From Deltaproteobacteria bacterium (GTDB lineage: Bacteria; SAR324; NAC60-12): DNA of 64,000 nucleotides. The notes beneath the pieces were generated by a model. That model searched no databases. It was not told where the DNA came from and worked only from the letters and a program-made list of their open reading frames with translations. Every line of letters begins with the position of its first letter. Position 1 is the first letter of the stretch. The position numbers and the translations under genes were made by a program. The stretch is taken from assembly GCA_038150265.1 (NCBI GenBank), contig JAYOTF010000002.1:1-64000 (forward strand), given 5' to 3'. Positions 1 through 64,000 of the stretch are shown here, piece by piece.

Positions 1-56
1 CCTATGCGCCTATGGTACTGCCGGGGAAGCTCGGCGGGAGAGTCGGTCGGCGCCGA
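1..56 (+). rRNA. rrf: 5S rRNA, 3' half (5' end outside window)
   Basis: GCGCCTATGGTACTGCC...GGGAGAGTCGGTCGGCGCC matches the conserved 3' half of bacterial 5S rRNA (GCCGATGGTA...GGGAGAGTAGG.CG.CGCC); exact 3' end approximate. Confidence 0.85.
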
Positions 57-95
57 CTCCTTTAAGTGAGAGATTTTCTATTTGAACGACCTTGA

Positions 96-170
96 AGGCG
101 CGTAGCTCAGTGGGAGAGCACTTCCCCGACACGGAAGGGGTCGGCGGTTCAATCCCGCCCGCGCCTACCA
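96..170 (+). tRNA. tRNA-Val(GAC)
   Basis: Cloverleaf: AGGCGCG/CGCGCCT acceptor stem, CTTCC/GGAAG anticodon stem, loop CC-GAC-AC, GGTTCAATCC T-arm, encoded CCA. Confidence 0.95.
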
Positions 171-206
171 TCTCCTGAAATCACACATTTTGGAGGAGCC
201 ATAGGA

Positions 207-749
207 ATTCGCAGATCTCGCATTCCTACCAAGCAAGAGGATTCCACCCGGACCAACGAAAACATCACGGCTTCCACCGTCCGCCTCATTGGCGGAGATG
301 GTGGACAGCTGGGAGTCATGAGCGTCGAAGAAGCCATGGCCGAAGCCGAAAGGGCCGGTCTGGACTTGGTTGAAATCTCCCCGAAAGCTACTCCTCCAGT
401 CTGTCGGTTGATGGACTATGGGAAGTTCAAGTATCAGCAAAGCAAGCGACAGCACGCGGCCAAGCAGCATCAGAAGGTGACGCATCTCAAGGAAGTAAAG
501 ATGCGGCCAAAAATCGAGGAACACGACTTTCAGTTCAAACTCCGGAACGCGATCCGCTTCCTGGAAGACGGCGACAAGGTCAAGGTCCTCGTGATGTTCA
601 TGGGCCGTCAGATCGCTCGCAAGGAGCTCGGCCTCGCTCTGCTGGAACGCTTTCAGCAGGAACTTGGGGAAAAAGCCGTTCTTGAACAACCCGCGAAAAG
701 CGAAGGTCGTTCAATGTTCATGATTCTTTCACCACCCAAAAAGAAATAA
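207..749 (+). CDS. infC: Translation initiation factor IF-3; probable non-canonical start ATT at 207 (or ATA at 201)
   Basis: IF3 motifs [25 protein letters not shown] and [14 protein letters not shown]; the frame is open upstream of ATG 318 ([15 protein letters not shown] is the IF3 N-terminus); SD GGAGGAG at 192-198. Confidence 0.95.
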
Positions 750-750
750 G

Positions 751-948
751 ATGGCTGTTAAGACCAAAACCCATCGTGGAGCGGCCAAGCGCTTCAAGAA
801 AACAGCCGGGGGCCTGAAACGGAAGAAAGCCTTCCTTCGCCACGGAATGAGAAAACGTAACCAAGACGTGAAACGTGTTCTGCGCCAGAAGACCATGGTC
901 TGCAAAGCTGATGCTGAACGAGTTTCCGCAATGCTTCCGAACGGATAA
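751..948 (+). CDS. rpmI: 50S ribosomal protein L35
   Basis: [15 protein letters not shown] motif; lies between infC and rplT. Confidence 0.97.
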
Positions 949-950
949 TC

Positions 951-1310
951 ATGGCACGCATCAAGCGAGCAGTTAACGCTAATAAACGAAAAAAAGCCTA
1001 CTTCAAGGCGGCAAAAGGCTACCGTGGTGGCCGCAGCCGTTTGTGGCGAACCGTTAAGGATGCGGTTGACCGCTCCCGAGAATACAGCTACCGCGACCGT
1101 AAGGTCCGAAAGCGTGACTTCCGCTCCTTGTGGATCGTCCGCATCAACGCGGCCGTCCGCGATCTGGGACTGAGCTACAGCCAGTTCATGCACGGACTGA
1201 AAGAGCTGAACATTGAGATGGACCGCAAAGCGCTGGCCAATCTCGCAGTGGAAGAGCCCCAAGCCTTTTCAGCGATTGCTGAGCAGGTGAAGGTGAAGCT
1301 CGCCGCCTAG
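951..1310 (+). CDS. rplT: 50S ribosomal protein L20
   Basis: MARIKR..AKGYRG..YRDRKVRKRDFRSLWIVRINAA. Confidence 0.98.
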   Translation: MARIKRAVNANKRKKAYFKAAKGYRGGRSRLWRTVKDAVDRSREYSYRDRKVRKRDFRSLWIVRINAAVRDLGLSYSQFMHGLKELNIEMDRKALANLAVEEPQAFSAIAEQVKVKLAA

Positions 1311-1317
1311 TTCTGCA

Positions 1318-1350
1318 AGGCTCAGCACCTCCTCTGCTGAGCCTCTTTTT
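1318..1350 (+). terminator. Intrinsic terminator after rplT
   Basis: 10-bp stem AGGCTCAGCA/TGCTGAGCCT, 7-nt loop, followed by CTTTTT. Confidence 0.8.
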
Positions 1351-1521
1351 CCCCTCTTGGTTCTTCGACGATTCTTTCGTCCTCCTCCTCGCTTCCGTCA
1401 TCTGAGTTCCTCACCTGAGAAGAGCCTCCTCCTGTTGGTTCCGATCTCTCAGATCCTCCTCCGGAAGAGCCTGTCCCGGCTTCTGAATCCCTCATCCATT
1501 TAATTCGTGATCTGACTGATC

Positions 1522-1554
1522 GCTAATCGAACCTTAACATTGATGCGTTAGGCT
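1522..1554 (+). promoter_or_regulatory. Putative Pho-type promoter of pstCAB-phoU
   Basis: GCTAATC-N5-TTAACAT-N8-TAGGCT; identical spacing to the motif at 46989-47021 upstream of the putative phosphatase. Confidence 0.35.
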
Positions 1555-1599
1555 CTTTGGGCGTAGTAACTTTTGGCCTTCTTCAGAGTCGCATCCCTC

Positions 1600-2964
1600 A
1601 TGCCTCCCTTACTTTCAGCCGCATTCCTCCTCCTTCTCTTCTCTGCTTACATCATTGGACAGACCCGTGCCCGGACGGTCTCTCAGCAGCAGGGAAAGCT
1701 TCACTCCCTTCCGACGTACCACGGATATTACGTGGCCCTCTGGTGTGGAATCCCCGCCATCTTGGTCGCTGTGGGGTGGTTGATGATTGAGCACTGGCTC
1801 TTCAAGGACTGGGTGCTGAGCTCCATCAATCTGGATTTAGCTCAGGGCCAACGGGAGCTGCTTTACAATGAGATTTCGGTCTTGGCTGACGGCGGAACCT
1901 TTCAGCCCAGCAGTCCGGAAGTGGCCACTGCGGCTCAGCAACTGGCTGACTGGAGAAGCGTGAGTGCCATGAGTCGGACCAGCCTTGTGTTGGTGCTGAT
2001 GATCCTGGGCACCCTGTTCGCCCGCACCAAGGTGGCTCCTCACTTCCGAGCCCGCCACACGGTGGAACGCTTCTTTACCGGATTTCTGATTCTCAGCTCA
2101 ACCATTGCCATCCTGACGACGGTCGGCATTGTGGTTTCGCTGCTTTTTGAAAGCTGGCGCTTCTTTGAACAGATCTCCCCGATTGAGTTCCTCTTTGGCA
2201 CCAAGTGGTATCCCCAGATTTCGATCCGGGCCGACCAGGCAGCCAGTGAGGGGGCGTTTGGTGCGATTCCCCTGTTTGCCGGAACGCTGCTGATCTCGAT
2301 GGTTGCCATGCTGGTTGCTGTACCGATTGGACTCTTCTCTGCGATCTACTTTGCAGAGTATGCCTCAAAGGGATTGCGGTCCTGGATCAAGCCGATGCTG
2401 GAAATCCTCGCCGGAGTGCCGACGGTGGTGTATGGCTTCTTTGCCGCACTGACCGTTGCTCCCTGGATCAAGGATTCCGGAACCAGTTTGGGGCTCGATG
2501 TCTCTTCCCAGAGCGCACTGGCTGCCGGATTGGTGATGGGGGTGATGATCATTCCCTTCATCTCGTCACTGTCAGATGACGTGATCAACGCTGTTCCCCA
2601 GACCCTGAGGGATGGCTCCTATGCCATGGGCGCCACCAAGTCCGAAACGATCAAGCAGGTGATCATGCCTGCTGCTCTGCCTGGAATTGTAGGGGCCGTG
2701 CTCCTGGCAGTGTCCCGGGCAGTGGGAGAGACCATGATTGTGGTGATGGCGGCAGGATTGGCCGCCAAGCTGACCATGAATCCACTGGAAAACGTGACCA
2801 CCGTGACGGTGCAGATTGTGGTGGCGCTGGTGGGGGATCAGGAGTTTGATGACCCCAAAACCCTGTCGGCCTTTGCCCTTGGGCTGGTCCTCTTCATTGT
2901 CACGCTCATCCTCAACGTGATCGCCCTGCAGATCGTAAAACGCTACCGAGAAAAGTATGACTGA
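1600..2964 (+). CDS. pstC: Phosphate ABC transporter permease PstC with N-terminal extension
   Basis: KPMLEILAGVPTVVYGFF, EAA-like loop (GSYAMGATKSETI), SRAVGETMIV; start at ATG 1600 or TTG 1573. Confidence 0.95.
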   Translation: MPPLLSAAFLLLLFSAYIIGQTRARTVSQQQGKLHSLPTYHGYYVALWCGIPAILVAVGWLMIEHWLFKDWVLSSINLDLAQGQRELLYNEISVLADGGTFQPSSPEVATAAQQLADWRSVSAMSRTSLVLVLMILGTLFARTKVAPHFRARHTVERFFTGFLILSSTIAILTTVGIVVSLLFESWRFFEQISPIEFLFGTKWYPQISIRADQAASEGAFGAIPLFAGTLLISMVAMLVAVPIGLFSAIYFAEYASKGLRSWIKPMLEILAGVPTVVYGFFAALTVAPWIKDSGTSLGLDVSSQSALAAGLVMGVMIIPFISSLSDDVINAVPQTLRDGSYAMGATKSETIKQVIMPAALPGIVGAVLLAVSRAVGETMIVVMAAGLAAKLTMNPLENVTTVTVQIVVALVGDQEFDDPKTLSAFALGLVLFIVTLILNVIALQIVKRYREKYD

Positions 2965-4246
2965 TCGTTCGCAACGAGATCCGGAATTCAGCAACCGATT
3001 GGTCCGGAAGCGTTACGCCGCTGAGCGACGGTTTCGCTTTTACGGCATCCTTGCCATGACACTGGGGGTGGGAGCCGTTGGCTTCCTCATCTTTACCATC
3101 TTTTCTTCCGGATACACCGCCTTCAGCCGGACTCGCCTGGCGGTTGAAGTCTTCCTGGACACCAATCGCCTGGGCGTGACGGCTCAGAGCAGCGCGGAAG
3201 AATTAAGACGGGTCAGCTACGATTCGGTGCTGCGGCAAGCGTGGGTCGAATCCTTCCCGGAGGTGAAGGCCCGCTCGGATCGCCGAGAATTGCTCCAGTT
3301 GCTGAGCTCCGGAGCCGGCAACGAGATCCGGCAAGCGGTCCTGGAGGATCCGGAACTGCTGGGAACCACCCATACCTTTAACGTCCTGGCGACTTCAAAT
3401 GTCGACCAGATCCTCAAGGGAAACGCACCTCGCGACATTGAGGAGTCCCGGCGCCTGATCAGCGACAAGCAACTCGCCTGGGTGGATCAGATTCAGGCAG
3501 AAGGGCGCATGTCCCAAACATTCAACACCGGTTTTTTCTTGAACGGAGATTCAAGAGCTGCTGAGATTGCCGGCTTGGGAGGCGCCCTCATTGGGTCACT
3601 CTACGCCTTGCTGGTGTGCTTCCTCCTCAGCTTTCCGGTTGGGGTGGCGGCGGCAATGTACCTGGAGGAGTTTGCGCCGAAGAACCGCTGGACCGAACTG
3701 ATTGAGGTCAACATCAACAACCTGGCTGCGGTCCCGTCCATCGTCTTTGGACTGCTGGGGCTGGCGGTCTTCCTCAACTTCTTTGGTGTGCCTCGGGGAA
3801 CACCGCTGGCTGGGGGACTGGTTCTGTCGCTGATGACACTCCCGACCATCATCATTGCCTGTCGAGCGTCCATCAAGGCCGTGCCTCCCAGCATCCGGGA
3901 AGCCGCCTTGGGCATGGGAGCGTCGCCAATGCAGGTCATGATTCACCATGTGTTGCCGCTGGCGCTGCCCGGAACCCTGACCGGAACCATCATTGGCCTG
4001 GCCCAGGCACTGGGAGAGACGGCTCCGCTGCTGATGATCGGCATGTTCGCCTTTGTGGCCGATATCCCGGGCGGACCACTGCAGTCAGCCTCTGCGCTTC
4101 CGGTACAAATCTATTTGTGGGCCGAGAGCTCGGAACGGGGATACGTCGAATTAACGGCCGCCGGCATCATGGTCATCCTCATCTTCTTGATTGCCATGAA
4201 TTCCCTGGCGGTCATTTTACGAAAACGCTTTGAACGCCGCTGGTAA
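2957..4246 (+). CDS. pstA: Phosphate ABC transporter permease PstA
   Basis: INNLAAVPSIVFGLLG, REAALGMGAS, GETAPLL. Confidence 0.95.
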   Translation: MTDRSQRDPEFSNRLVRKRYAAERRFRFYGILAMTLGVGAVGFLIFTIFSSGYTAFSRTRLAVEVFLDTNRLGVTAQSSAEELRRVSYDSVLRQAWVESFPEVKARSDRRELLQLLSSGAGNEIRQAVLEDPELLGTTHTFNVLATSNVDQILKGNAPRDIEESRRLISDKQLAWVDQIQAEGRMSQTFNTGFFLNGDSRAAEIAGLGGALIGSLYALLVCFLLSFPVGVAAAMYLEEFAPKNRWTELIEVNINNLAAVPSIVFGLLGLAVFLNFFGVPRGTPLAGGLVLSLMTLPTIIIACRASIKAVPPSIREAALGMGASPMQVMIHHVLPLALPGTLTGTIIGLAQALGETAPLLMIGMFAFVADIPGGPLQSASALPVQIYLWAESSERGYVELTAAGIMVILIFLIAMNSLAVILRKRFERRW

Positions 4247-4258
4247 CCTTCGGAATCC

Positions 4259-5080
4259 ATGTACTCAAATCGAACCATGAACGAACCAAAAGCAACCTCG
4301 GTGGCACAAAAAGCTGAGTCGCCTACCTATCGAATCACTGCGCATGATGTCCGGGTCTTCTATGGCGACAAAGAGGCGCTGCATGGGATCGACATCAACA
4401 TCCAGGCGAACAGCGTGACCGCCCTGATTGGCCCTTCCGGATGTGGCAAGTCCACCTTCTTGCGTTGCATCAACCGCATGAATGATGTGATTGAAGGGTG
4501 CCGGGTGACTGGAACCATTGCTCTGGACGGAAACGATATTTATGATCCGAAGCTGGATGTGGTGCAACTCCGGGAAAAGGTGGGAATGGTCTTTCAGAAG
4601 CCCAACCCGTTTCCGAAGTCGATTTACGACAACATCGCCTACGGCCCCCGGATTCATGGGCTGGCTCAGAGTCGGCAGGAGCTGGACGAGATTGTGGAAA
4701 CGAGCCTCCAGCGCGCCGGGTTGTTTGAGGAGGTGAAGGACCGTCTTGCGGAGCCTGGAACCGGACTTTCCGGGGGGCAGCAGCAGCGGCTGTGCATTGC
4801 TCGGGCGATCTCGGTGAATCCGGAGGTGATCCTCATGGACGAGCCTGCCTCGGCGCTGGATCCGATTGCCACGGCGCGCATTGAGGAGCTGATTGACGAA
4901 CTGCGGCAGAACTACACGATCATCATCGTCACGCACTCCATGCAGCAGGCGGCCCGGGTTTCCCAGCAGACCGGATTCTTCCACATGGGAGACCTGGTTG
5001 AGTTTGGTCCCACTGACGACATCTTCGTGCGCCCGCAGGACAAGCGGACGCAGGATTACATTACCGGACGTTTTGGATAA
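4259..5080 (+). CDS. pstB: Phosphate ABC transporter ATPase PstB
   Basis: [39 protein letters not shown]-terminal YITGRFG. Confidence 0.97.
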
Positions 5081-5084
5081 CATC

Positions 5085-7001: not shown

Positions 7002-7101
7002 GACATCCTGAACAAAAGCTGAGTAAGAAGAGGAATCGGCTCCACAGGCCGATGGAGAAACCAGGCAGCGGCACCCATTGTCCGAGGCTTGAGGCTCGGG
7101 T

Positions 7102-9591
7102 TCAAGACAACTCCCCTGCGCGTTCGGTGGGACGATCGCGTTCCAGGACGGCCATCAGTGCGGGCGCCACCATCAGGTCGGCAAGGAGCGCAAAGAGCAA
7201 GGCCGTACCAGTGATGAGCCCAAAGGAGAAGAGGTTGCTCATGTGGGAAATGATGTAGGTGTAAAATCCGCTGGCAAGCACCACCGTGGTAAAGAGCATG
7301 GCGCGTCCGGTGGTGGTGAGGGTCTGGTGCACCGCCTGCTTGACGTCGCCCGTCTGGTCATGAAAGCGCCGGAAGTTGTGCAGGAAGTGAATGGTATCAT
7401 CGACCGCCAAACCCAGGGCGATGCTGCCCACGAGGATCGACATGGCATCAAGGGGCAAGTCCAGGAGCTGCATCAGCCCCAGCCCAAGGACGATGGGCAG
7501 GAAGTTCGGGATCATGCTCCATAGCCCCAACCGTACACTCCCCAGGACCATCATCATCATTACGGTGATCACTCCGCTGGCGATGAGGTAGCTCTCAACC
7601 ATGCTGGTCATCAGGAGCTGAATGGTGTGAGACATCAAGGTCAGGAAGCCCGTCAGCACAATCTGGGTGTCCGGACCAAAGAGCCGATGGGCCAACTCCT
7701 CCACCGCATCCAGCATGGGCACGTAAGCATTGGCGTCGGTCCACGGCATCTTCATCGTGATCCGAGCGGTGGTGTACTCCGGATCGACCAGCCGCTCCAG
7801 GTCATCGGAGCCTGCATTTTCAAACAGCAGCAGCTCCTGCGAGATCAGGTCGGCAGACTCCGGAATCGTGTACGCAGACGGCTCGTTGTTGTTCAGAGCC
7901 TGATGAATCTGCTTGAGGGTATCGGCAATGGAGGTGGACTTGCCAACGTAGATCGCGCCCACCTGAAGCTGCTCTGCCTCACGGTTGAACTGCTCCAGGG
8001 TGTTCAGGGTTTCCGGGGCCTTCACGCTTTGCGGAGGCTGCACCAACAGCTCGGCAATCGCGGCTCCTCGCATCTCCCGGTTGATCGTCTCGCTGGCCAG
8101 ACGCGCCTCGCTGTCTTCCGGAAGCCAAACGACCGGATCATGAGAGAACCGGAGGTCCAGAGACAGCACCAGCGCTCCCACCACTGCCAGACCAAAGCAA
8201 AGGAGCACCGAACGCGCATGCTGCACAGAAAAATCACCGATGCCGGCCAGAAGCTTCTCGGAAAAGGTCTCGCCCTGTTGCTCGGGAAGGGCGCGGGGAC
8301 GCAACGGCATGAGCGACACGAGCGCCGGAAGCAGCGTCAGCGCCAGCACCACCGAAAGCAGGACCCCCAAGGCTCCGAACCGTCCCATTTGCGCAACGGG
8401 CTCCATGGGCGCCCCGGAAAACGAAAGCAACCCACCGGCGGTGGTGAGGCTGGTCACCAGGATCGCCAGCCCCGAGTGCCCCAGCGCGTTGACAAGCGAC
8501 TGCTCCTGAGACACCTGGCGGTCGAAGCTTTGGAAGAAGATGGTGAGCAGGTGCACCGAATAGCCCACCCCGACCGCCAGCATGAACGAGGGCAGGATTT
8601 GCGAAACAATGGTCACCGGGACTCCCATCCACGCCATGGCTCCGATTGTGCCGGCGAGGGACAACACGACCATGAGGAGGGGCAGCACAATGCCAACGAG
8701 CCTCCGGAGCACGAGGTACAGCAGCAGCACAATCAGGGTCATGGAGATGACGGTGAACCGAGGGATGTTGCTCATCATCTCCTCCAGGATCACACGCTCC
8801 ATCATGAGTGACCCGCCTTCGTAAATGAGGAAATCGTCCCGCTGAAACCGCTCCATGACACGTGAAACGGCACGGGTGAACTCCACTTTTTCCTCTTGGG
8901 TCAGCAGGCGGGGAGGGGCGAGTTCTGGCGCCGGCTCGGTTCCGGATGCCACGGACGGCTCCTCAAAGCCCCCGAGGTCGAGGGAGGCCTCGGTTCCGGA
9001 AGAGCCCTCAAATGCAAGCAGGTCTGCGGTGTCGGGTGCCGAAGGCTCCGGAGCGACCCAGGCGACTGGTCGGGCCACAATGAGCAACAGGCGCCCATCG
9101 GCAGAAACCAGATTGTTCTGATAAACGGGGGTGTTCCGGACTCGTTCCCAAAAGGTTTGCAGGGCCTGCTCATCCTCCGGAAACGGATCCATCAATTCCT
9201 TGACGACCAACTGGTCCCCTTCGCCGCGGGTCAAGGTGACGTTGACCAGGCTTTGCACCTCGTCCAGGTAGGGAAGCTCAGCCTCCAGAGCCTGATGCAG
9301 GTCCCGCAGAGTCCTGAGGGTCTCCAGCGAAAAGGGATCCGCTGGCTCCAGCATGAGCAGCACCGAGGCGTCGTTGCCGAATTGTTCCTTGAAGGCATTG
9401 TACGCCTGCAAGGAGTCGTCTTCTTGCTCAAAGAACCCCTCGGTGGAGGTGTCTACCGTGATGCGCCCCAGGGGCAGGAAGAGGACGGTCAGGAGGGTCA
9501 GGTTCAGGAGAATGACGAGCCAGCGCCACCGAATGATCCACCGGGCAAAGGTCTCGAAATAAACTTCGGTTTGGTGGATCCAGCGGCGCAT
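7102..9591 (-). CDS. MMPL/RND-superfamily membrane exporter
   Basis: Two repeats of one TM + periplasmic loop + five TM; LGLAVDDTIHF and TSLTTAGG motifs. Confidence 0.88.
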   Translation of the reverse strand: MRRWIHQTEVYFETFARWIIRWRWLVILLNLTLLTVLFLPLGRITVDTSTEGFFEQEDDSLQAYNAFKEQFGNDASVLLMLEPADPFSLETLRTLRDLHQALEAELPYLDEVQSLVNVTLTRGEGDQLVVKELMDPFPEDEQALQTFWERVRNTPVYQNNLVSADGRLLLIVARPVAWVAPEPSAPDTADLLAFEGSSGTEASLDLGGFEEPSVASGTEPAPELAPPRLLTQEEKVEFTRAVSRVMERFQRDDFLIYEGGSLMMERVILEEMMSNIPRFTVISMTLIVLLLYLVLRRLVGIVLPLLMVVLSLAGTIGAMAWMGVPVTIVSQILPSFMLAVGVGYSVHLLTIFFQSFDRQVSQEQSLVNALGHSGLAILVTSLTTAGGLLSFSGAPMEPVAQMGRFGALGVLLSVVLALTLLPALVSLMPLRPRALPEQQGETFSEKLLAGIGDFSVQHARSVLLCFGLAVVGALVLSLDLRFSHDPVVWLPEDSEARLASETINREMRGAAIAELLVQPPQSVKAPETLNTLEQFNREAEQLQVGAIYVGKSTSIADTLKQIHQALNNNEPSAYTIPESADLISQELLLFENAGSDDLERLVDPEYTTARITMKMPWTDANAYVPMLDAVEELAHRLFGPDTQIVLTGFLTLMSHTIQLLMTSMVESYLIASGVITVMMMMVLGSVRLGLWSMIPNFLPIVLGLGLMQLLDLPLDAMSILVGSIALGLAVDDTIHFLHNFRRFHDQTGDVKQAVHQTLTTTGRAMLFTTVVLASGFYTYIISHMSNLFSFGLITGTALLFALLADLMVAPALMAVLERDRPTERAGELS

Positions 9592-9748
9592 GGAAGGCTT
9601 GAACAGAGGAAGGAATTTGAGTTGTTAAGGAGCTAGCATAAACAAGGGGATTGAGAGAACTCAAGCTGCTCTTGCCTCTTTTGCAAAAACACGATTACCC
9701 TAAGGATGTTCGAAAAAATCAATCTCAGCGATAACCCTTAAAATCAGC

Positions 9749-13334: not shown

Positions 13335-13381
13335 GGCAGGCAGGAGAAGGGACGGCTGCCCGTCCCTTCTGAAGGAGGCAA

Positions 13382-13870: not shown

Positions 13871-14038
13871 AGCAACGTTCTCCAGTTTGTTTTTAATGAG
13901 ATTCTGTCGGTGGTTCCGAATTTTTTCGTAAGAAACAAGTTTGAATCTTCACACAATTTATGCCCGCTTGTCAACCCCCAACGCGGGAGAGTCGCAATTG
14001 CCCCGCTTCGCCGATGAACCACGGGTGACGTTTTTGAC

Positions 14039-14650: not shown

Positions 14651-14657
14651 CGAGCAA

Positions 14658-17289: not shown

Positions 17290-17342
17290 GGGGCCTCCTC
17301 CTGGCGCGTCAAGTGGGGATTCCGGCGGTCCGGAAAATCAAT

Positions 17343-37733: not shown

Positions 37734-39491
37734 ATGCGCTTTGAACGGGAATTCGTCCAGCAGGTCGAAGCAGCCACGGACCTGGTTTCCCTGATTCAGG
37801 ATCATGGTGTCGTTCTGAAAAAGGCCGGGGCCAATTACAAGGGCTGCTGTCCCTTTCACTCGGAAAAGACGCCCTCGTTTAACGTCAACCCCCAGCGGAA
37901 CTTTTACCACTGCTTTGGCTGTGGCGTCGGCGGAGGACCGCTCAAGTTCCTCATGGATCACGACCGACTCGGTTTTGTGGAGGCTGTGGAAGACCTGGCC
38001 CAGCGCAGTGGCCTTGCGCTTCCGGAGCGGACCGATGGGCCAAGGCGTCGGCCTGCCGATGATCCGGGCTTGCGAGCCCTGACGCTGGCCGCGTCCTTTT
38101 ATGAAGAGCAGCTGGCCGGTTCTGCCGGGGCAGCCGTGCGGCGCTACCTGGGCGAGCGCATGGTTCCGGAAGCGATGTGGAGTGCCTTTCGGCTGGGATA
38201 CGCGCCAGACGACTGGCGGACCCTGCTCCGGCACCTGGAGGGCGCCCAGTGTTCGGAAGACGTGATGCTCCAGGCCGGGCTCATCAAGCAGTCGGAGCGC
38301 TCGGGACGTCCCTACGACCGCTTCCGGAATCGCCTCATGTTTCCAATTCGGGACCTCCGGGGACGGGTCATTGGCTTTGGAGGGCGGGTCTTTGGAGAGG
38401 CGGAGGGGCCCAAGTACCTGAACAGTCCGGAGAGCGATTACTACCACAAGAGTCAGGTGCTGTACGGGCTTTATGAGGGCCTGGAGGTCATCCGGACCAA
38501 ACGCGAGATGATCTTTGTGGAAGGGTACCTCGACGTCATCCGGTTGCATGAGCATGGCATCCAGCAGGCGGTTGCTCCATGTGGAACGGCACTGACCGAG
38601 GAACACGTGGGGCTGGTGAGCCGCTATGCGGATCGGGTCATCCTGGTGTTTGATGGCGATGACGCCGGACGCAAGGCGGCGCTGAAGAGCTGCGCCCTGT
38701 TTTTGGGAAAGCGCTTGCAGGTGGAGGTGGTCACGCTGCCGCCTCAGGAAGATCCGGACACCCTGCTGCTGCAGGGCGGCGCTCCCGCGTTTGAAGCCGT
38801 GGTGCAGCAGGGGCAGAACCTGGTGGACTTCTGGGTGGAACGGACGCTGGCGAAGCATCCGGAGACGCCGCAGGGAAAGATGCTGGCACTGGAGGAGCTG
38901 CTTGCCGACCTGCAACCGCTTGAGGAGTCGCCCCTGAAGCACCTGCTGCTGCAAAGTGTGGGCGATCGGTTGCGGCTGGACCCGAAATTGTTGGGTGACT
39001 CAGCAAAACGCTTGCAGCGTCCGGTGGAAAATGATATAAAACCCAGTTTATCTGCCACCCCTGCCGTCATCCGGGACGAGTACTGGATTCTCCAGGCAAT
39101 GCTAACCGCCAGGCACCTCGCAACCCAAGCACGGGAGCAACTTCAGGCCGATGACTTCCAGGACCCACGATGGAAAAGGCTTTTTTTGCACCTCGTGCAG
39201 CTCTCCGACGACGAGCTTTCCTCTTTTGACCCCATTGATCTTGAACCACTCCACCCCGACCTTAGCCGTGATGCCATGGAACTGCTGGCGGGGGAATTCC
39301 TGGACACTCATGTTGAGGAGCAGTTTCGCCTCTCCTTAGTGCGTTTGAAAGAGCGTGCCCTGCAGCGTCAAAAGGGAAGCCTGACGGCTCCGGATGACTG
39401 GGAACAGCGGCTGCAGAGCGGCATGGCATGGCGTCAGGAATGGCAGCGCGTTCGGCGCTACCGGGAAGAATCCAGAACCTCAAATCCGTAG
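37734..39491 (+). CDS. dnaG: DNA primase
   Basis: [51 protein letters not shown]. Confidence 0.97.
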
Positions 39492-39496
39492 GGCAC

Positions 39497-41287
39497 ATGT
39501 CCGAGACCTCCGTCCTTCAAGACCTCCCGAAAAACGAATCGAAGCTCATCAAGGAACTGGTGGCCGAAGGCCGCGACAAGGGCTTCCTGACTCACGACGA
39601 CATCAACGGACAACTCCGTGACAACACCTCTCCGGAGCAAATGGAGCGCCTGCTGGCCATTTTGGAAGAGGTGGGCATTGACGTGGTGGACTCGGAGCGG
39701 CAGATTCGTTTGAATTCGGCAGAGCGGGATGTTCCGGACCTGGACCTGGAGGACTACCAGGAGCAGGAGCTGGACCTGGACCCCGGGGTGGACAACTCGA
39801 CCGATGACCCGGTGCGGATGTACCTGCGGGAGATGGGGACGATCCAGTTGCTCACACGGGATGGCGAGATCAGTGTGGCCCAGCAGATTGAGCAGGGGCA
39901 GCAGGAACTCATTGAGATCTTTGTCCACTCCAACCTGATCATCCTCTACCTGATGGAGATCAACAAGCGGCTCAAGAGTCAAAAACTCCGGGCCCGGCAC
40001 GTGGTGAGTGGGTTGGATGAGGACGACAACGTCATTGAAGATGAAGACGCCGCCACGACCAAGCTCATTGAACAGCTGGACGAGCTGCAAGAAAATTACG
40101 AGAAGGCTCAGAACCTGCAAGAGAAGGCACAGAAGCGCAAGCTGACGGGTCCGCAGGGCAAGCAGCTTCAAGAGGCCGAAGACCGCATTCAGGAGATCAT
40201 CCGGACCATCAACTTCAACTCCCGGCAACTGGAGCTGATGTGCCTGGAGATGTTCAAGCACAAGAACCGGATTGACCTCACCCGTCGGCACATCCAGGGC
40301 TACATCAAGGCGCTCAAGACGCCGGTGGAGGAGTTGGACGCGCTCTTTGAGAACTGGTACCAGGCCAAGGGAACCGAGACCCGAAAAGCGGCCCAGGCGA
40401 TTCATCAGCGCACGGGGGCTCCGGTCAACATTGCGAACCGGATTTATGAGAAGCTCAAGGCTGGGGAACGCCGTGTGCAAGCCATGACAGACCGGACGGC
40501 GCTCACCTGGGAGGCCTTCCAGCAGGAAGTGGCCCTGCTCCGGGAAGCAGAGAGCAAGGTCAAACGGGCCAAGGCAGCCCTGGTGGAAGCCAACCTGCGG
40601 CTGGTGATCAGCATCGCCAAGAAGTACACGAACCGCGGCCTGCAGTTCCTGGACCTCATTCAGGAAGGGAACATTGGGCTGATGAAGGCGGTGGACAAGT
40701 TCGAGTACCGGCGCGGCTACAAGTTTTCCACCTACGCCACCTGGTGGATCCGTCAGTCGATCACCCGGGCCATTGCGGACCAGGCTCGGACGATCCGGAT
40801 TCCGGTGCACATGATTGAGACGATCAACAAGCTCTCCCGCATGTCCCGGACCCTGATTCAGGAGTACGGACGGGAGCCGACGGCAGATGAAATTTCTGAC
40901 CACATTGGCATGCCCCTGCACAAGGTCCGCAAGGTGCTGAAGATTGCCAAGGAGCCCATCTCGCTGGACACGCCGATTGGAGACGATGACGATTCGCAAC
41001 TGAAGGACTTCATTGCGGATGACAAGGCTGGAGACCCGAATGACGCGACCATTTACGCGAACATGGGCGAGAAGACCCGAGAAGCACTGGGCACCCTGAC
41101 GGAACGAGAAGAGAAGGTGCTGCGCATGCGATTTGGCATTGACGAGATCAAGGACCACACCCTGGAAGAAGTGGGGCAGGATTTTGATGTCACGCGTGAG
41201 CGGATCCGTCAGATTGAAGCGAAGGCCCTCCGCAAGCTGCGGCACCCTTCGCGCTCGAAGTTGTTACGATCCTTTTATGAAGGTTAA
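39497..41287 (+). CDS. rpoD: Primary sigma factor RpoD
   Basis: Region 1.1, [51 protein letters not shown]. Confidence 0.98.
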
Positions 41288-55424: not shown

Positions 55425-56195
55425 CTAGCGCTGGCGACGGAGGTAGTCCAGCAGCGCCGGAACCACCAGCTCGGCACTCCAGAGGCCCCGGTCAAACTTC
55501 ATCTCGGGAAGGATGGTGTAGCGCCCGAAACGCATCTGACGTCCGGACTCCCGGACCGAGAGAAACCGGGGCTCGGAGGTGGCGGTGATCAACTGCATGG
55601 GCGTGCTCAATTCGCCCAGGTGGTCCCCGATGCCTTCCCAATGGACAGAAGCATTGAGGCTGTGGGCGTACGCCGAAGGGGTTCCCTCTGCCAGCTGTTC
55701 AAGTTGTTCGGGGGCAAAGGCTTCATCCACCCGGCACCGATCCAGGTAGCCCTGCAGGTTCCCTTGCTGCAGCAACGCCACGCCCTCTTCCTGGAGGGGC
55801 AACTCATCAATGAGGGGGTAGGCATGGGCCGACATGGTGTTGAGGGTCCGGATCACCTGCCGGTGTGAGACCGCCATCTGAAAGCCCACCTGGGCGCCGA
55901 GCCCGACTCCGATGAAGTGGGTGTAGTCCACCCGCATCTCCTGCAGCACCCCAAGGACGTGGGCAATCCGGGCATCCATGGAGTAGGCCTCCGGATCTTC
56001 CGGAGCATCGCTGCGTCCCTGGCCCAGCGGTTCAAGCGCAACGATCCGGAAGATCGACTCCAATTGTTCAATGTAGCCGGTTTCCTGCCAGTAGTTTTCG
56101 GTGACCAGGATGGGGCCGTGCAGCAGCAGGTAGGGCCCCCGGTCTCCGTAAAGCTCGTAGTGGATCTTCTGGTGGTTGATGACGACAAAAGGCAT
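55425..56195 (-). CDS. Alpha/beta-hydrolase fold protein, probably non-catalytic
   Basis: IHYE..G.GP.LLLHG, GQGRSDAP, GVGLG at the nucleophile elbow. Confidence 0.78.
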   Translation of the reverse strand: MPFVVINHQKIHYELYGDRGPYLLLHGPILVTENYWQETGYIEQLESIFRIVALEPLGQGRSDAPEDPEAYSMDARIAHVLGVLQEMRVDYTHFIGVGLGAQVGFQMAVSHRQVIRTLNTMSAHAYPLIDELPLQEEGVALLQQGNLQGYLDRCRVDEAFAPEQLEQLAEGTPSAYAHSLNASVHWEGIGDHLGELSTPMQLITATSEPRFLSVRESGRQMRFGRYTILPEMKFDRGLWSAELVVPALLDYLRRQR

Positions 56196-59247: not shown

Positions 59248-61659
59248 CTACAGCATCGCCAGGGCGTCCTGAATCTGCTGAGACTCTTCATCGGACAGGA
59301 TGAAGTCTGACTTGAGGATGGCAAAGGCCTGCTCGGGCATGATCTTCTCCACCAGCTTGGCGTCATCCATCCGCAGCATGATCCGAACCAGGCGGTCAAA
59401 CATCCCCTTCGGCGTTTCAAAGGCTCCCTTGTTGAGCATGAGGAACTTGTCTACCTGAGCGGGGACGTCAAAGCGCTTCTTGGCCTCATCGAAGACAAAT
59501 GCCTTGGAGTGGGCGTTGTAGTAGCCGTGAGCCAGAAGCTTGAGCCGGGCAAAGTTGACAATGAAGTCGCTGGCCGTCTTGCTGGCATGGAGGGCCTTCT
59601 CCAGGTTGGTGACGGTGGACTGCGGAGCGTTGTAGCTGGCCTCGGCCTTGTCGAGGCTGTCAAACATCACGTGGGTGTGCGTGAGGATGTAGTACAGCAT
59701 GTCTCCCTTGGGCGTGCGCATCCGCCGGGTCACCCGCCGGAGGGTGTCCATCACGTTGGCGGGGAAGGGGTCGTAGCGTCCGGAGGTCTTGGACTGCTGC
59801 ATGCTCTTGAGGGCCTTGAGCGGATCGGAGTCGGTGGTGGAGCGCCCAATCATGCTCTGCTCAATGTGGTGGGCCGACCGGTGACCTTCCGGAGAGTCGT
59901 CGGCATCGTGGCTGGCGGACATCCGGGGGGCTTCTGTTGCCTGCAGGGACTTCACGCGGAGCTTGACCGGCAGCAGCTGCTCCTCTGCTGTTTCCACAAA
60001 GAGGCGCTCTTCTTCAAAGGAGCTGTCCAGCACCTCAAGGACCACCCACTCCAGGGCTTCCGCGTTGAAATCAACGGCTCGGAGGAGCTCCTCCTGGTAA
60101 CCCGGAGGCGTGGCCAGGAAGTCCTGCAGGGCCTGAGCCTGATCCGCAGGATCGGTTTGTTCGGTCCGGATGCTGTCAAAGTGCGCGTAGAAGTCCTGAA
60201 AGCGGTCAATGGACCGAGAGAGCAACTCGCCCATCATTTCCACGTTACCGAGCACCATGCAGGCGGAGGCAACCGAGGTCCGGGCTTCATAAGCCTGCTG
60301 AAGCCACTGGTAGAGCTGCAAGGAGGGAGCGGTCTGGTTGGAATCGACGTCTTCAATCAAGGCTCCGAGTTGCATCTCATACTGAGAGATCTCGTTGCGG
60401 GCCTGCTCAATCTCACCGATGGTTTCCGTCAGGCCCTTGACAAAAGCCGCGACGATGTCCAGCTTCTCCAGCAGCTCCTTCGACTCCAGGAGCATGCGGT
60501 GGTGTGAGTCAAAAATCTGCAAGGCCTTGCGCAGCAGTCCCTGAATGGTGGTCAGGACCTTTTTCAGAAAGTCGGGTTTGAGGCGCTTGGGGGAGGCGTT
60601 GTAGTACAGCTTCCCAAAGGAAACCGCGAGGTTTCCGAGGATGGAATTGACCTGCCGGAGGGAGTCCAGAACCTGCTCGAGCTTCCCATTAAACATTTGC
60701 AGGTCTTGTTGCTCCTGTGTAGCCTTTTGAAGATGCTTCTCCGCGAACTCGCTGGGCTTCCGGCTTCCCGTGAGCTGCAAGTTCAGGTCGTTCAGGTACT
60801 GCAAGGGCGCCAGAGGAACCTGCAACAGCCCGAGTTGCAGCCGCAGGTCATTCACGGTCAGAGGAAAGCGTCCCTTGGGGTCGTGCAGGGCCTTCGGGGC
60901 CCGCTGAAGGGCGAGGTTTTGCTGAATGCCCTTGAGCCGTGTCAGGATGGAATCGATGGTGGGCTGAGGCTGCTGGGGAGCCGGTTGCTGCTTCTTGATA
61001 ACGGAGTCCAGAAGCTGCTCCTCCATTTCCTGCAGGGGGCGGAGGCCCTGGAACAGCTTGTAGGCGGCTTCCAGCTCTTCCACCGTGAGGGGCTGCTCGG
61101 CGCCCCCGAATTCCGGGCGGTTCAGGAGCTCCTGAGCCTGAGGCTTTTGCTGGGTGTAGACCTGCTCGAACTTGGCGACGAAGTCGTCATCGACCTGATG
61201 CGGAACCGGCAAGTCGCGCCAGCTTTTCTGAGTCTGGAGGCTGTCATGAAGCCGATCCAGCTGGGCGAGAACACGGGTCACGGATTCCCGGGGGGTCAGG
61301 CCCTTGGGTTCCATCCCGAAGAAGCCCTGATCGAGGCTCAGGTGAACGCAGTAGCTCAGGTGGCTGATGCGAGACCCCAGGTCCAGAAAGCGCTGGGGGG
61401 CCCGCTGGAAGTGCTCCGGAGTCCGGCATTCCTCATAATACGTTTTGAAGAGCTGGCGAATCTCATTCAGCGTCTTCACGATGGTGCTTTGCTCACTTGA
61501 AGGAATGAACCAGCGGTGGTCGGGATGAAGCGCTGTTTTGACAAACTTCTGGATGGCTTCTGTTTCAACCTGAGCCGCCTGTAACTGGGAGACCGGTCGT
61601 CTCTGTTGCTGGAGCGCCGAGCGCTTCTGCTGGACACTTTGGAGAAGAGAATCGTTCAC
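59248..61659 (-). CDS. Large helical/coiled-coil hypothetical protein
   Basis: 803 codons, GTG start with AGGAG SD, Q/L/E/K-rich, no TM or signal. Confidence 0.7.
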   Translation of the reverse strand: MNDSLLQSVQQKRSALQQQRRPVSQLQAAQVETEAIQKFVKTALHPDHRWFIPSSEQSTIVKTLNEIRQLFKTYYEECRTPEHFQRAPQRFLDLGSRISHLSYCVHLSLDQGFFGMEPKGLTPRESVTRVLAQLDRLHDSLQTQKSWRDLPVPHQVDDDFVAKFEQVYTQQKPQAQELLNRPEFGGAEQPLTVEELEAAYKLFQGLRPLQEMEEQLLDSVIKKQQPAPQQPQPTIDSILTRLKGIQQNLALQRAPKALHDPKGRFPLTVNDLRLQLGLLQVPLAPLQYLNDLNLQLTGSRKPSEFAEKHLQKATQEQQDLQMFNGKLEQVLDSLRQVNSILGNLAVSFGKLYYNASPKRLKPDFLKKVLTTIQGLLRKALQIFDSHHRMLLESKELLEKLDIVAAFVKGLTETIGEIEQARNEISQYEMQLGALIEDVDSNQTAPSLQLYQWLQQAYEARTSVASACMVLGNVEMMGELLSRSIDRFQDFYAHFDSIRTEQTDPADQAQALQDFLATPPGYQEELLRAVDFNAEALEWVVLEVLDSSFEEERLFVETAEEQLLPVKLRVKSLQATEAPRMSASHDADDSPEGHRSAHHIEQSMIGRSTTDSDPLKALKSMQQSKTSGRYDPFPANVMDTLRRVTRRMRTPKGDMLYYILTHTHVMFDSLDKAEASYNAPQSTVTNLEKALHASKTASDFIVNFARLKLLAHGYYNAHSKAFVFDEAKKRFDVPAQVDKFLMLNKGAFETPKGMFDRLVRIMLRMDDAKLVEKIMPEQAFAILKSDFILSDEESQQIQDALAML

Positions 61660-61742
61660 GGGAACTCCTGAGGACCGCGATTCAAAAAAACATCAGATTA
61701 TGAACTGGGGATTCCCAGCTAACTCATTTGATCAACAAAGAA

Positions 61743-63677
61743 ATGGGCTCGTTGCTAAAAAATATCTCACAACCCCGCGAGATTCAACAGCTGAGTTTGG
61801 AGCAGCTCGAGCAGCTCGCAGAAGAGTGTCGGCAACGCATCATTGAAGTCACCAGCAAGCGCGGAGGCCACCTGGCGTCTTCTCTGGGAGCCGTGGAACT
61901 CTCGGTTGCCCTCTTCAAGCTGTTTGACTTCGAGCAAGACCGCATCATCTGGGATGTTGGGCACCAGGCGTATGCCCACAAGATCCTCAGTGGACGCAGC
62001 GACGCCTTTGAAACCCTGGCCCAAAAGGGAGGCATCAAGAAATTCCTCTCCCGTGATGAAAGCCCCTATGATCACTTTGGAGCCGGGCATGCCTCCACCT
62101 CCATTTCTGCCGGAGTGGGCATGGCGATCAGCCGGGACCTGAGGCAGCAGGACCATCAGGTCATTGCGGTCATCGGGGACGGCTCCATGACCGGAGGCAT
62201 GGCCTTTGAGGCCCTGAACCACAATGGGTTTGCCGAAAAGAAGATGCTGCTGATCTACAGCGACAACGGCATGAGCATTGACCCCAACGTCGGCGCGCTC
62301 TCCAAATTTGTCACCCGCATTGCCGCGTCTCGCTCGTACAACCGCCTTCGTGAAGAAACCTGGGACCTCATTGGCAAGTCCCCCTTCTCGAAGACGCTGC
62401 ACATTGGCATGGAGAAGGTGCTCGACTCCATGAAGACCTTCTTCACGCCCGGAATGCTCTTCGAGCAGCTAGGCTGGCGGTACTTTGGCCCGGTAGACGG
62501 ACACAACCTCAAGGAACTCCTCGACATGCTTCAGCATGTGAAGGACTTTGAGGGCCCGGTTGTGGTGCATGCCATCACCAAGAAGGGCAAGGGGTACAAG
62601 TATGCGGAAGAAGACGCTTACAAGTACCACGGGGTGAAGCCCTTTGTTCCGGAAAGTGGCGAGTTCATCAAGAAGAGCACTGCTGCCCCGACCAAGGCGG
62701 TCAGTTACTCCGACATCTTTGGGACCACCCTGAGTGAGTTGATGAGCAACGATCCGGACGTGGTGGCAATCAGTGCCGCCATGCTCAGCGGAACTGGTTT
62801 GTTAGCCCTGCAAGAACGCTACCCGGATCGCATCATTGATGTTGGGATTGCGGAAGGACACGCGGTGACCTGTGCCGCCGGAATGGCCACCAACGGCACC
62901 AAACCCTTTGTGGCGATCTATTCCTCGTTCCTCCAGCGCTCTGTTGATCAGCTCATTCACGATGTGGCCATTCAGAACCTTCCGGTCCGCTTCATGCTGG
63001 ATCGCGCGGGTTTTGTGGGCGCTGATGGCCCCACCCATCATGGGGCCTATGACCTGACCTACCTGCGGATGATTCCGGGAATGACGGTCATGGTTCCACG
63101 CAACGGTGCCGAAATGAAGCGCATGCTCCGCTTTGCCCACGAGTTTGAGTCCGGACCCATCGCCATGCGTTACCCGAGGGGCGAATCGGCCGAGCTGGAC
63201 GAGTCCACTGTCCCGCCCATTGAGCTGGGTCAGGCCGAGGTGCTGCAGGAAGGCACAGAGGTGGTGCTCTTTGCCGTGGGGGTGATGGTGGAGCAGGCGC
63301 AGGCCGTGGCCGAGCGTCTGGGTGAGCAGGGGTGGTCGTGTGCGGTGGTCAATGGCCGGTTTGTGAAGCCTCTGGATGCGGAAACCCTCCTGCGCCTGGC
63401 ACACTCAGCAGAGCTGGTGGTGACACTTGAGGAAAACACCGCCCAGGGGGGATTGGGCAGCGCGGTGCTGGAAACCCTTTCTGCAGCTCAGGTTTTGGTG
63501 GAAACCCTGGTGGTTGGAATTCCCGACCGCTTCATTGCCCAAGGCTCCCCTGACGAACAGCGTGAAGAGGCTCAGCTGTCGGTGGAGGCCATTGAGGCCC
63601 AAATTCAAACGCGTTTGCAGGGGCGTCAACCTCAACGCCTGCGAGCCCTTCCCCAAGAGGCGCGAAAGGTGTCCTGA
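61743..63677 (+). CDS. dxs: 1-deoxy-D-xylulose-5-phosphate synthase
   Basis: GGHLASSLG, WDVGHQAY.HKIL, GDGSMTGG, DVGIAEGHA, YSSFLQR, DRAG..GADGPTH. Confidence 0.98.
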   Translation: MGSLLKNISQPREIQQLSLEQLEQLAEECRQRIIEVTSKRGGHLASSLGAVELSVALFKLFDFEQDRIIWDVGHQAYAHKILSGRSDAFETLAQKGGIKKFLSRDESPYDHFGAGHASTSISAGVGMAISRDLRQQDHQVIAVIGDGSMTGGMAFEALNHNGFAEKKMLLIYSDNGMSIDPNVGALSKFVTRIAASRSYNRLREETWDLIGKSPFSKTLHIGMEKVLDSMKTFFTPGMLFEQLGWRYFGPVDGHNLKELLDMLQHVKDFEGPVVVHAITKKGKGYKYAEEDAYKYHGVKPFVPESGEFIKKSTAAPTKAVSYSDIFGTTLSELMSNDPDVVAISAAMLSGTGLLALQERYPDRIIDVGIAEGHAVTCAAGMATNGTKPFVAIYSSFLQRSVDQLIHDVAIQNLPVRFMLDRAGFVGADGPTHHGAYDLTYLRMIPGMTVMVPRNGAEMKRMLRFAHEFESGPIAMRYPRGESAELDESTVPPIELGQAEVLQEGTEVVLFAVGVMVEQAQAVAERLGEQGWSCAVVNGRFVKPLDAETLLRLAHSAELVVTLEENTAQGGLGSAVLETLSAAQVLVETLVVGIPDRFIAQGSPDEQREEAQLSVEAIEAQIQTRLQGRQPQRLRALPQEARKVS

Positions 63678-63844
63678 GGCAAGCCAAAGGGCACTTTTTA
63701 CTTGCAAAACCCTGCCAAACCCCTTCTACTTGGACCGTCCGCTTACCCCAGTTTCGGTACTCCTTGACCCGGCATTGAGTTGAGTGCCGAAGCCTCCCTC
63801 TGGCGGTCCAGTTTGTTAACCCCCAATTACTTCAAGGATGAAGA

Positions 63845-64000
63845 ATGTCTGACACGATGTCCCGGCTCGAAGCCAAGATTCAGGATGCGATTGAAACCAT
63901 TGAAATGCAACGCATGGAAATTGCCGAACTCAAGCAGCGCAACAATGAGCTTGAGCAGCAGCAGCAGGAGTGGGAAGACAAACTGAACGCCTTGATCGAA
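63845..64000 (+). CDS. zapB: Cell division protein ZapB-like, partial (not in the ORF track)
   Basis: Hand translation MSDTMSRLEAKIQDAIETIEMQRMEIAELKQRNNELEQQQQEWEDKLNALIE resembles E. coli ZapB LEAKVQQAIDTI..QMEIEELK..N..W..L..L. Confidence 0.75.
   Translation, partial: MSDTMSRLEAKIQDAIETIEMQRMEIAELKQRNNELEQQQQEWEDKLNALIE

Follow-up and report, generated by a model that had tools for sequence, protein, structure and literature searches.

Why should a single six-base palindrome be the most frequent hexamer of a bacterial genome, and what maintains it there? The question was raised by a window of 64 kb (the whole stretch analyzed here, positions 1-64000 of contig C2), in which TCCGGA occurs as 182 dispersed copies, or 2.8 per kb. 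The source genome, labeled G000, is a fragmented metagenome bin of 87 contigs (3,393,712 bp, 61.2% GC, 97.8% complete). An earlier note on this DNA had counted at least 54 copies in the first 20 kb, had put the excess at roughly 8-fold and had likened the word to the highly iterated palindromes (HIPs) of cyanobacteria. The copies that begin within the first 20 kb number exactly 54, and there is one at each position which that note named. We show here that the excess is genome-wide and acts at the level of DNA, that it is inherited by clades, and that neighboring copies keep in phase with the DNA helix.

Excess and specificity of TCCGGA

In 100 dinucleotide-preserving shuffles of the window the mean count was 22.48 ± 4.64 and the largest 38, with none of the 100 reaching 182. 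The whole of G000 contained 9711 sites, one per 350 bp (approximately 2.9 per kb), giving TCCGGA a two-strand count of 19422 as compared with 10913 for the runner-up word. Observed-to-expected ratios (O/E) under Markov models of order 0 to 4 were 8.67, 7.57, 3.95, 2.39, and 1.22, so that the strong excess first estimated by hand was borne out by the zero-order ratio as well as by the window count. The order-1 ratio was the highest among G000 hexamers with more than 1,000 occurrences. At order 4 the ratio is only 1.22 because that model is built from TCCGG and CCGGA, pentamers which carry the signal themselves (3.1-fold; 54% of TCCGG copies are completed by A).

The excess was specific to the complete word. 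CCGG itself had an O/E of 1.36 and the 15 other NCCGGN words ranged from 0.66 to 2.26; the equal enrichment of all NCCGGN words, which the earlier note had considered as a simpler account, was therefore not observed. The four palindromes proposed there for comparison were likewise not enriched (AGGCCT 1.46, ACCGGT 0.66, CCCGGG 0.67, and GCCGGC 0.68). The nine pairs of words differing from TCCGGA at one position had ratios of 0.85 to 2.28 as compared with 7.57 for the cognate word, and none was depleted. As each of these neighbors falls far below the cognate word, all six positions matter. The most frequent pair carried its change at the outer position (CCCGGA/TCCGGG, 2.28-fold), an outer bias which is modest among nine pairs. 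No depletion was seen in the neighbors expected from deamination, with ratios of 1.51 for TCTGGA/TCCAGA and 1.00 for TTCGGA/TCCGAA.

Coding phases, non-coding DNA, and permitted positions

Genes were called with a self-trained scorer of open reading frames (ORFs), which returned 2734 ORFs and agreed in the window with the frames of Pfam-supported ORFs. Sites within ORFs numbered 9096 (2.93 per kb). The 614 outside ORFs (2.13 per kb) compared with 87 predicted by composition, a 7.1-fold excess, while AGGCCT and ACCGGT reached 139 and 64 copies in the same non-coding DNA. In 2680 trimmed genes 8946 copies were distributed over the three codon phases as 2114, 2439, and 4393. Twenty synonymous-codon shuffles, which preserve each protein and the codon usage of each gene, gave 544, 752, and 851 by phase and a total of 2148 ± 50 (O/E 4.16, z = 137). 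The excess over this null was 3.2- to 5.2-fold by phase, as compared with 0.64 to 1.55 for nine control palindromes. Even over a codon-pair null, which itself already includes most of the TCCGGA signal, the two phases spanning three codons were in excess by 1.61-fold (4393 versus 2728) and 1.34-fold (2439 versus 1814), with controls at 0.79 to 1.12.

Codon choice was altered accordingly around the word. A third-base T, present in 17.4% of codons overall, rose to 73.2% before CCGGA; the CCG share of proline codons rose from 37% to 78% between T and GA, and the GGA share of glycine codons from 24% to 69% following TCC. The excess of TCCGGA thus acts at the DNA level and not in translation. The earlier note had held that several codon phases and intergenic copies leave no single amino-acid pair as the cause, and all three phases together with the non-coding copies agree with this. 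The nulls it had suggested, namely Markov models, synonymous shuffles, and a dicodon-aware model, all left an excess (orders 0 to 3 in the case of the Markov models).

The protein sequences of G000 allow TCCGGA at 21,793 positions, and the 8946 which carry it make up 41% (33.5%, 37.5%, and 48.9% by phase). Compared with the shuffle expectation of 9.9%, this corresponds to an odds ratio of 6.4 and would imply a scaled advantage of approximately 1.85 per site. Occupancy was 0.37-0.41 across classes of codon score and 0.31-0.44 across classes of GC content, and its distribution was near-binomial. A lower value of 0.25 in the first tenth of ORFs is in part an artifact of ORFs drawn from stop to stop. 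Eleven genes with at least 8 permitted positions had no site, as compared with a binomial expectation of 7.1. The earlier note had remarked on the absence of the word from rpmI, rplT, phoU, and apbC; it is indeed absent from phoU and apbC, and with so many empty genes expected by chance such absence carries no meaning.

Copies did not cluster. At most 5 fell within 150 bp, and one window held 5 or more where a Poisson distribution gives 9.8. Flanking information was weak (A or G at +1, G at +2, C at +3) and nil by +4, and extension of the palindrome was favored at ±1 only (1.10-fold). A dispersed repeat, such as a repetitive extragenic palindromic element or a miniature inverted-repeat transposable element, or a hairpin was ruled out by these near-random flanks and the lack of an extended palindrome. 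No paired copies of terminator type were seen in G000, and its 41 tRNA genes contained a single TCCGGA. The pressure for TCCGGA is therefore global, uniform over genes, and not tied to particular sites.

Six short contigs of G000 (C83, C85, C84, C69, C63, and C61) had occupancies of 0.06-0.23 as compared with 0.40 overall. These may be recently acquired or mis-binned DNA, although the numbers are small.

Helical phasing of neighboring copies

The most informative feature, and one absent from the earlier note, was the spacing of the copies. Distances between pairs in G000 peaked at 9, 19-20, 30-31, 41-42, 51-52, 62-63, and 72 bp and onward. With the 3-base codon period removed, a damped cosine fitted these distances with a period of 10.47 ± 0.02 bp, an amplitude of 0.3-0.4, and a decay length of 160-220 bp; the fitted phase offset was about 0 (-0.2 to -0.85 ± 0.3 bp). 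The relative Fourier amplitude at 10.5 bp was 0.082, as compared with 0.015 ± 0.006 (maximum 0.034) in 200 random fillings of the permitted positions and 0.010 for the permitted positions themselves, and the period therefore does not derive from protein structure. Equally abundant control hexamers showed no 10.5-bp phasing, and A+T content around the sites had no such periodicity (amplitude 0.0001). With increasing distance the amplitude fell from 0.14 (12-110 bp) to 0.064, 0.053, and 0.034 (310-410 bp) and was lost in noise beyond 600 bp. Fading over a few hundred bp is what torsional uncertainty, or twist fluctuation, predicts.

The same dependence was evident in the filling of permitted positions. 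Beside a filled site, 42-50% of permitted positions in phase were filled as compared with 31-36% of those out of phase, and at 11-13 bp from a filled site just 7-12%. At 9 bp 40 of 98 permitted neighbors were filled, at 11 bp 4 of 50. No phase dependence was found beside unfilled permitted positions. Among 1263 pairs lying across different genes or involving non-coding DNA, the best period in the range of 5-20 bp was 10.5 bp (amplitude 0.099, compared with 0.030 for the codon period).

Phasing was reproduced in two further genera. In genus g12 (genome G013, 440 kb, 57% GC) the best period was 10.6 bp. In genus g11 (three species pooled, 41-44% GC) the signal was unclear in the first 268 kb and clear with 661 kb, where a best period of 10.25-10.4 bp stood above all others in three distance ranges. 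Given the helical-repeat period, the zero offset, the fading with distance, and the crossing of gene borders, whatever favors a site senses the rotational setting of its neighbors.

Turnover between relatives and distribution in the phylum

G000 was compared with G002 of the same genus (81.5% nucleotide identity; identity of 0.53 at 4-fold sites over 43 kb). Aligned sites were kept in 55 of 127 cases, as compared with 31% for all hexamers, and among 52 abundant words TCCGGA ranks 16th. Both genomes permit the word at 231 positions, and there the probability of a position being filled in G002 was 0.54 if it was filled in G000 and 0.19 if not. Codons were also better retained inside the word than outside it (GGA 0.68 versus 0.45, CCG 0.64 versus 0.48, CGG 0.77 versus 0.55). 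Sites in this pair are retained about twice as well as neutral sequence.

At greater distance the agreement on sites largely disappeared. Between G000 and G013, 211 putative orthologues (best hits, not curated, with at least 45% identity and at least 60% coverage) provided 75,438 codons with a 4-fold identity of 0.396. The word is permitted by both genomes at 799 positions, where the filled fractions were 0.427 versus 0.322, and in phase 2 0.518 versus 0.497, values close to independence; each lineage therefore fills a similar share of largely different positions. The conservation at orthologous sites which the earlier note had proposed to look for was thus present between close relatives and nearly lost between distant ones. 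With the sister-genus genome G020 (196 orthologues, 70,167 codons) the contrast was one of abundance, with 627 sites in G000 and 21 in G020. Permitted contexts per 1000 codons were 20.96 in G000, 22.46 in G013, and 17.17 in G020, where G013 and G020 have equal GC content. As the two enriched genomes offer more permitted contexts, the pressure also slightly shifts amino-acid sequences.

For the phylum as a whole we used a simple yardstick, the count of TCCGGA divided by that of the reversed-word control AGGCCT, in 88 genomes which, being related, are not independent. In 41 relatives the ratio was 4-6 in g1, 10-14 in g11, 14-30 in g12, 3-8 in g4, approximately 4.6 in g6, and approximately 1 in g2. 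An RpoD tree of 30 of the 41 genomes, those for which the locus had been fetched, joined (g12+g1) and (g4+g11) in one clade with support of 99/96; all 11 members are enriched, and the sister group is g2. The closest named relatives of this RpoD have at most 50% identity over the full length. Among the 88 genomes, 36 had a ratio of at least 3. Family f1 contributed 26 of its 45 genomes to this number and f7 9 of its 19, and the only f4 genome (357 versus 10 copies) belongs here as well, as compared with none of 19 in f2; G065, with 13 versus 4 sites, was left out of this count. The sister genus g2 remained at approximately 1 in nine of nine genomes, and no substitute palindrome was enriched there at lengths of 4, 6, or 8 (433 kb of G020; maximum 2.4-fold, TCCGGA 0.41-fold). 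The trait occurs over a range of 41-61% GC, and g2, with 56% GC, lacks it. It is heritable and inherited by clades, and the lineage-level, HIP-like signal outside cyanobacteria that the earlier note had surmised is supported.

In g11, 15 of 18 genomes were enriched. The exceptions G047, G054, and G055 are small, 51-57% complete, and have a ratio of approximately 1.6; should this low ratio be real, they offer the nearest natural contrast in which to look for the gene responsible.

Eleven of the 88 genomes were strongly depleted, with a ratio of 0.25 or less (G081 and G083-G087 of f7, and G067, G068, G027, G029, and G032). Five depleted f7 genera held 15-267 copies of TCCGGA as compared with 1435-1882 of the control, and in the extreme cases 15, 25, and 31 copies were left in 3.1-3.4 Mb, as compared with 1435-1728 of the control. 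Such near-erasure looks like long-standing restriction specific to TCCGGA. A restriction-modification system shared by five depleted genomes was rejected, since their C5 methyltransferases are 26-34% alike, have unrelated neighbors, and are not orthologous.

Search for the responsible factor

Profile searches of G000 (97.8% complete) did not find Vsr (PF03852), a C5 methyltransferase (PF00145), PF02384, MutH, or SeqA. PF00145 was also not found in G013, G018, G019, G022, and G023, and in the most enriched genera a C5 methyltransferase was found in none of three g12 genomes and not found in two of three g11 genomes. Across 41 genomes the presence of Vsr and of C5 methyltransferases did not match the trait. 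All absences given here are from genomes that are 51-100% complete. The nuclease families associated with CCGG (PF07832, PF09015, and PF09019) gave no match in G000, where the controls were equally silent. The methylation or repair link that the earlier note had inferred has so far found no support, either in these gene searches or in the deamination neighbors, which stand at 1.5 and 1.0.

G000 encodes two SPPY genes resembling amino-methyltransferases, C51:248-1384, which is also its only, weak, match to PF02086, and one on C45. On C45 (L145:35-3156) the SPPY gene, encoding an N4/N6-type DNA methyltransferase of 258 aa, comes directly after an RVT_1 reverse transcriptase of 469 aa and is accompanied by an ORF of 311 aa without Pfam match, a set which is possibly a defense-type module. 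The C45 enzyme has an orthologue in G001, while the best PF01555 match in G002 reached only E=7e-6, and it was rejected as the factor.

The C51 gene was present in 36 of 41 relatives. As g2 (four of four genomes) and family f2 (15 of 16), neither of which is enriched, are among its carriers, and as the gene was not found in the enriched G066 of another family, it does not track the trait; it was also not found in four depleted f7 genomes. The search for an orphan methyltransferase suggested earlier therefore yielded a conserved candidate whose presence does not follow the enrichment. A model built from an alignment of G000 and 27 of 29 other loci, with two partial or interrupted loci left out, was confident (predicted local distance difference test score, pLDDT, 89.4) and had an alpha-class layout. 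Its nearest solved folds were tRNA m2G enzymes and E. coli Dam, with template modeling (TM) scores of 0.35-0.5, and as the tRNA enzymes are equally near, the modeled fold is compatible with either DNA or tRNA as substrate. The open frame upstream of the SPPY core comprises 126-352 residues, charged and of low complexity, in g1, g12, g11, and g4, as compared with 39 in g2. This is a single phylogenetic contrast and hence weak evidence. The tail is made of repeats rich in Arg, Asp, and Glu in g1 and g12, is rich in Lys in g11 and g4, and is nearly absent in g2 (L147; L149-L177).

Other candidate readers fared no better. An extra ParB/Noc paralogue was rejected since ParB is single-copy nearly everywhere, and a large dynamin (700-aa type) with a helix-turn-helix coiled-coil partner since it occurs in g1, g12, and g2 and not in g11 or g4. 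Among genomes of good quality in the phylum, G000 included, ComEC was present in 35 of 35. Enriched, neutral, and depleted members alike carry it, so that its distribution does not follow the trait and speaks neither for nor against uptake. No histone fold was found in enriched genomes. Tandem histone-fold genes on both strands, approximately 6.6 kb apart, occur on C7 and C488 (L304, L307) of G006, an assembly of 12 Mb in 750 contigs; they resemble a cluster of eukaryotic histone genes, which would make this bin contaminated.

No paper in the collection searched mentions SAR324 together with TCCGGA or with metaepigenomic work, and broader searches gave only papers on cyanobacterial HIPs.

Interpretation and alternative explanations

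We tentatively favor, with confidence a little short of even, the explanation that an abundant, dyad-symmetric DNA-binding factor recognizes TCCGGA and contacts several sites from one side of the helix. Such a factor would touch at least two copies simultaneously, whether it bridges them, loops the DNA between them, or has the DNA lying against a protein or membrane surface. To carry TCCGGA would then bring each permitted position a weak, genome-wide, position-independent advantage, and the advantage would be larger with a neighbor an integral number of helical turns away. The purpose would be chromosome organization. We infer all three elements, that is, a protein as reader, the engagement of several sites, and a role in organizing the chromosome.

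Several points weigh against this explanation. Each candidate reader tested was either not found or had a distribution that did not match the trait, and we know of no described precedent for a sequence-specific protein with approximately 10,000 hexamer sites. Phasing is no proof of an architectural role, as an uptake or repair machine which binds two sites could also give rise to it, and a purely physical property of the hexamer may be an alternative. There was a weak site-level association between G000 and G013 (odds ratio 1.57, p=0.003). The self-trained gene model is crude, and it was checked against Pfam frames in the window only.

In its broadest form, the favored explanation would amount to a sequence-specific 'chromatin code' of bacteria, in which an abundant protein organizes the nucleoid by bridging or tethering approximately 10,000 palindromes on the same face. 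We consider this possible, if on balance doubtful. If true, the word has long been the target of opposing forces in SAR324-type bacteria, since other lineages have nearly erased it.

Of the alternatives, a methylation ratchet of the type modeled for HIPs by Elhai survives best, and we regard it as rather unlikely. An orphan methyltransferase would mark TCCGGA or its CCGG core, and a methyl-directed bias of mismatch repair would create and keep sites. The alternate HIPs GGCGCC and rCCGGy each have a cognate methyltransferase (Elhai 2015, PMC4390886), and the commonest single-base deviant of TCCGGA differs at the outer position, as in HIP1. The conserved C51 SPPY gene is a conceivable agent in that its predicted fold has Dam among its nearest relatives and its charged tail is long in strongly enriched genera and short in g2. 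However, that fold is equally near to tRNA m2G enzymes, the presence of the gene does not follow the trait, and the searches of G000 found neither a C5 methyltransferase nor Vsr, MutH, or PF02384. The deamination neighbors, moreover, are not depleted, and a repair bias indifferent to context predicts no 10.5-bp phasing.

A word for DNA uptake or self-recognition is unlikely. In this case cells would preferentially take up, or spare, TCCGGA-rich fragments, and the word would spread through recombination as a molecular drive. A density of 2.9 per kb, even dispersal, turnover, and sharing among related species fit such drive, ComEC is present in G000, and the few short contigs of low occupancy are as expected of foreign DNA. 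HIP1 itself has lately been proposed as an uptake signal (PMC13756078; also a 2024 bioRxiv preprint). On the other hand, ComEC is found irrespective of the trait, and TCCGGA lacks terminator-type pairs and any palindromic extension past ±1. Known uptake words are non-palindromic 9-12-mers, and a two-site uptake receptor, which phasing would require, has to our knowledge not been described.

Intrinsic DNA mechanics is improbable. On this view a bendable or bent hexamer would be selected in phase because it gives the chromosome its shape or supercoiling, with no protein devoted to the task. The period equal to the solution helical repeat, the zero offset, and a decay length of about the size that twist fluctuation would produce are in its favor. 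The specificity is too sharp for this, with CCCGGG, GCCGGC, and ACCGGT at 0.66- to 0.68-fold, no A+T periodicity accompanies the sites, and the trait spans 41-61% GC yet is missing from g2 at 56%.

A compositional artifact is excluded, and a by-product of codon or dicodon bias, of CCGG content, or of a dispersed repeat has next to no probability, since its one favorable figure, the order-4 ratio, comes from a model which absorbs the word, whereas the non-coding excess, the excess over synonymous shuffling in all phases, that over the codon-pair null, the almost random flanks, and the contrast with G020 in orthologous codons all stand against it.

The function of hyper-abundant palindromes such as HIP1 has been open for thirty years. 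TCCGGA provides a HIP1-like signal in an unrelated phylum, in which the expected methyltransferase was not found and helical phasing is a new physical clue, pointing to a factor which touches several sites. The phylum also offers useful contrasts for comparative genomics, between the enriched clade and its sister genus, between the three low members of g11 and their congeners, and between families enriched 30-fold and depleted 100-fold. As the pressure bends both codon choice and amino-acid content, it has consequences for models of codon usage, binning, and gene prediction in these bacteria, which are abundant in the environment.

Features of the window

Copies and genes of the window which illustrate the above are collected in Table 1. 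Both copies that the earlier note had placed between genes, at 1460 and 17329, lie in gaps between called genes. In the MMPL-family gene three of the four spacings are near multiples of 10.5 bp, and that of 88 bp is near a half-turn. The 4.9-kb rpoD locus holds 17 copies in G000 as compared with one in each of four g2 loci (L084, L086-L088).

Table 1. TCCGGA copies and marker gene in the 64-kb window.
Feature	Position	Strand	Remark
TCCGGA copy, non-coding	1460..1465		Upstream of pstC-like gene; gap between called ORFs 918-1307 and 1570-2961
TCCGGA pair, spacing 41 bp (~4 turns)	3308..3354		In pstA-like gene; pair-distance histogram peaks at 41-42 bp
Five TCCGGA copies	8941..9181		In MMPL-family gene 7102-9591 (-); spacings 54, 52, 88, 41 bp
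TCCGGA copy, intergenic	17329..17334		Between clpB-like (14680-17289, -) and Mur-ligase (17400-18839, -) genes
rpoD	39428..41287	+	Marker for tree and for counts in relatives
TCCGGA pair, spacing 9 bp (first favored spacing)	55990..56004		

At 9749-13334 the + strand holds three ORFs in a row (418, 379, and 398 aa) which overlap one another and have no Pfam match at E<=1e-5, nor do further ORFs at 34552-35952 (466 aa), 44791-46983 (-, 730 aa), and 59248-61659 (-, 803 aa). DNA near-identical to positions 1-20000 (58-95% of sampled 31-letter words) was present in contigs of six runs (X1-X5 and X20) from three studies. These runs are labeled estuary or aquatic metagenome, with one unlabeled, and the organism or close strains thus recur in such samples. 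Among 40 of the 360 variant places between four runs, those listed, none fell inside TCCGGA as compared with 0.5 expected, numbers too small to discriminate.

Comparison with known systems

One likeness to the favored explanation is SeqA of E. coli, which binds pairs of hemimethylated GATC sites on one helix face, a mode of binding that would favor helical spacing. It too is a protein needing two short palindromes on the same face of DNA. It differs in that no SeqA homologue was found in G000 and in that GATC is not enriched there.

Also in E. coli, Dcm methylation together with very-short-patch repair (Vsr) is an example of a repair bias on a methylated palindrome raising the frequency of a word, CCWGG being over-represented. 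In G000, by contrast, neither Vsr nor a C5 methyltransferase was found, and the T-for-C neighbors did not show the depletion which this mechanism predicts.

The DNA uptake sequences (DUS) of Neisseria and uptake signal sequences (USS) of Pasteurellaceae resemble TCCGGA in being one short word in excess, genic as well as intergenic, common to related species, and possibly kept by drive. Those words are longer, oriented, and non-palindromic, and often form inverted pairs in terminators, and we know of no helical phasing of DUS or USS pairs. TCCGGA, by comparison, is a 6-base palindrome without clusters, not an oriented non-palindromic 9-12-mer.

A further likeness is to HIP1 (GCGATCGC) and the alternate HIPs GGCGCC, rCCGGy, and GCsGC of cyanobacteria, as described by Elhai (2015, PMC4390886) and Xu et al. 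(2018, PMC5861425), with which TCCGGA shares the form of a short GC-rich palindrome in many-fold excess. TCCGGA differs from them in occurring in another phylum, as a hexamer at 2.9 per kb, and with no cognate C5 methyltransferase found. A periodicity of 18-94 kb is described for HIP1 (Xu et al. 2018, PMC5861425), as compared with 10.47 bp for TCCGGA, measured here on the bp scale only. In the same accounts HIPs occur in any coding frame and in non-coding DNA, are lineage-wide with exceptions, have outer single-base variants as the commonest deviants, and appear to be under selection for abundance and distribution rather than at single sites. TCCGGA likewise is an outlier in abundance, is independent of reading frame and present in non-coding DNA, is shared by lineages with exceptions, and has, to a modest degree, its deviants at the outer position.

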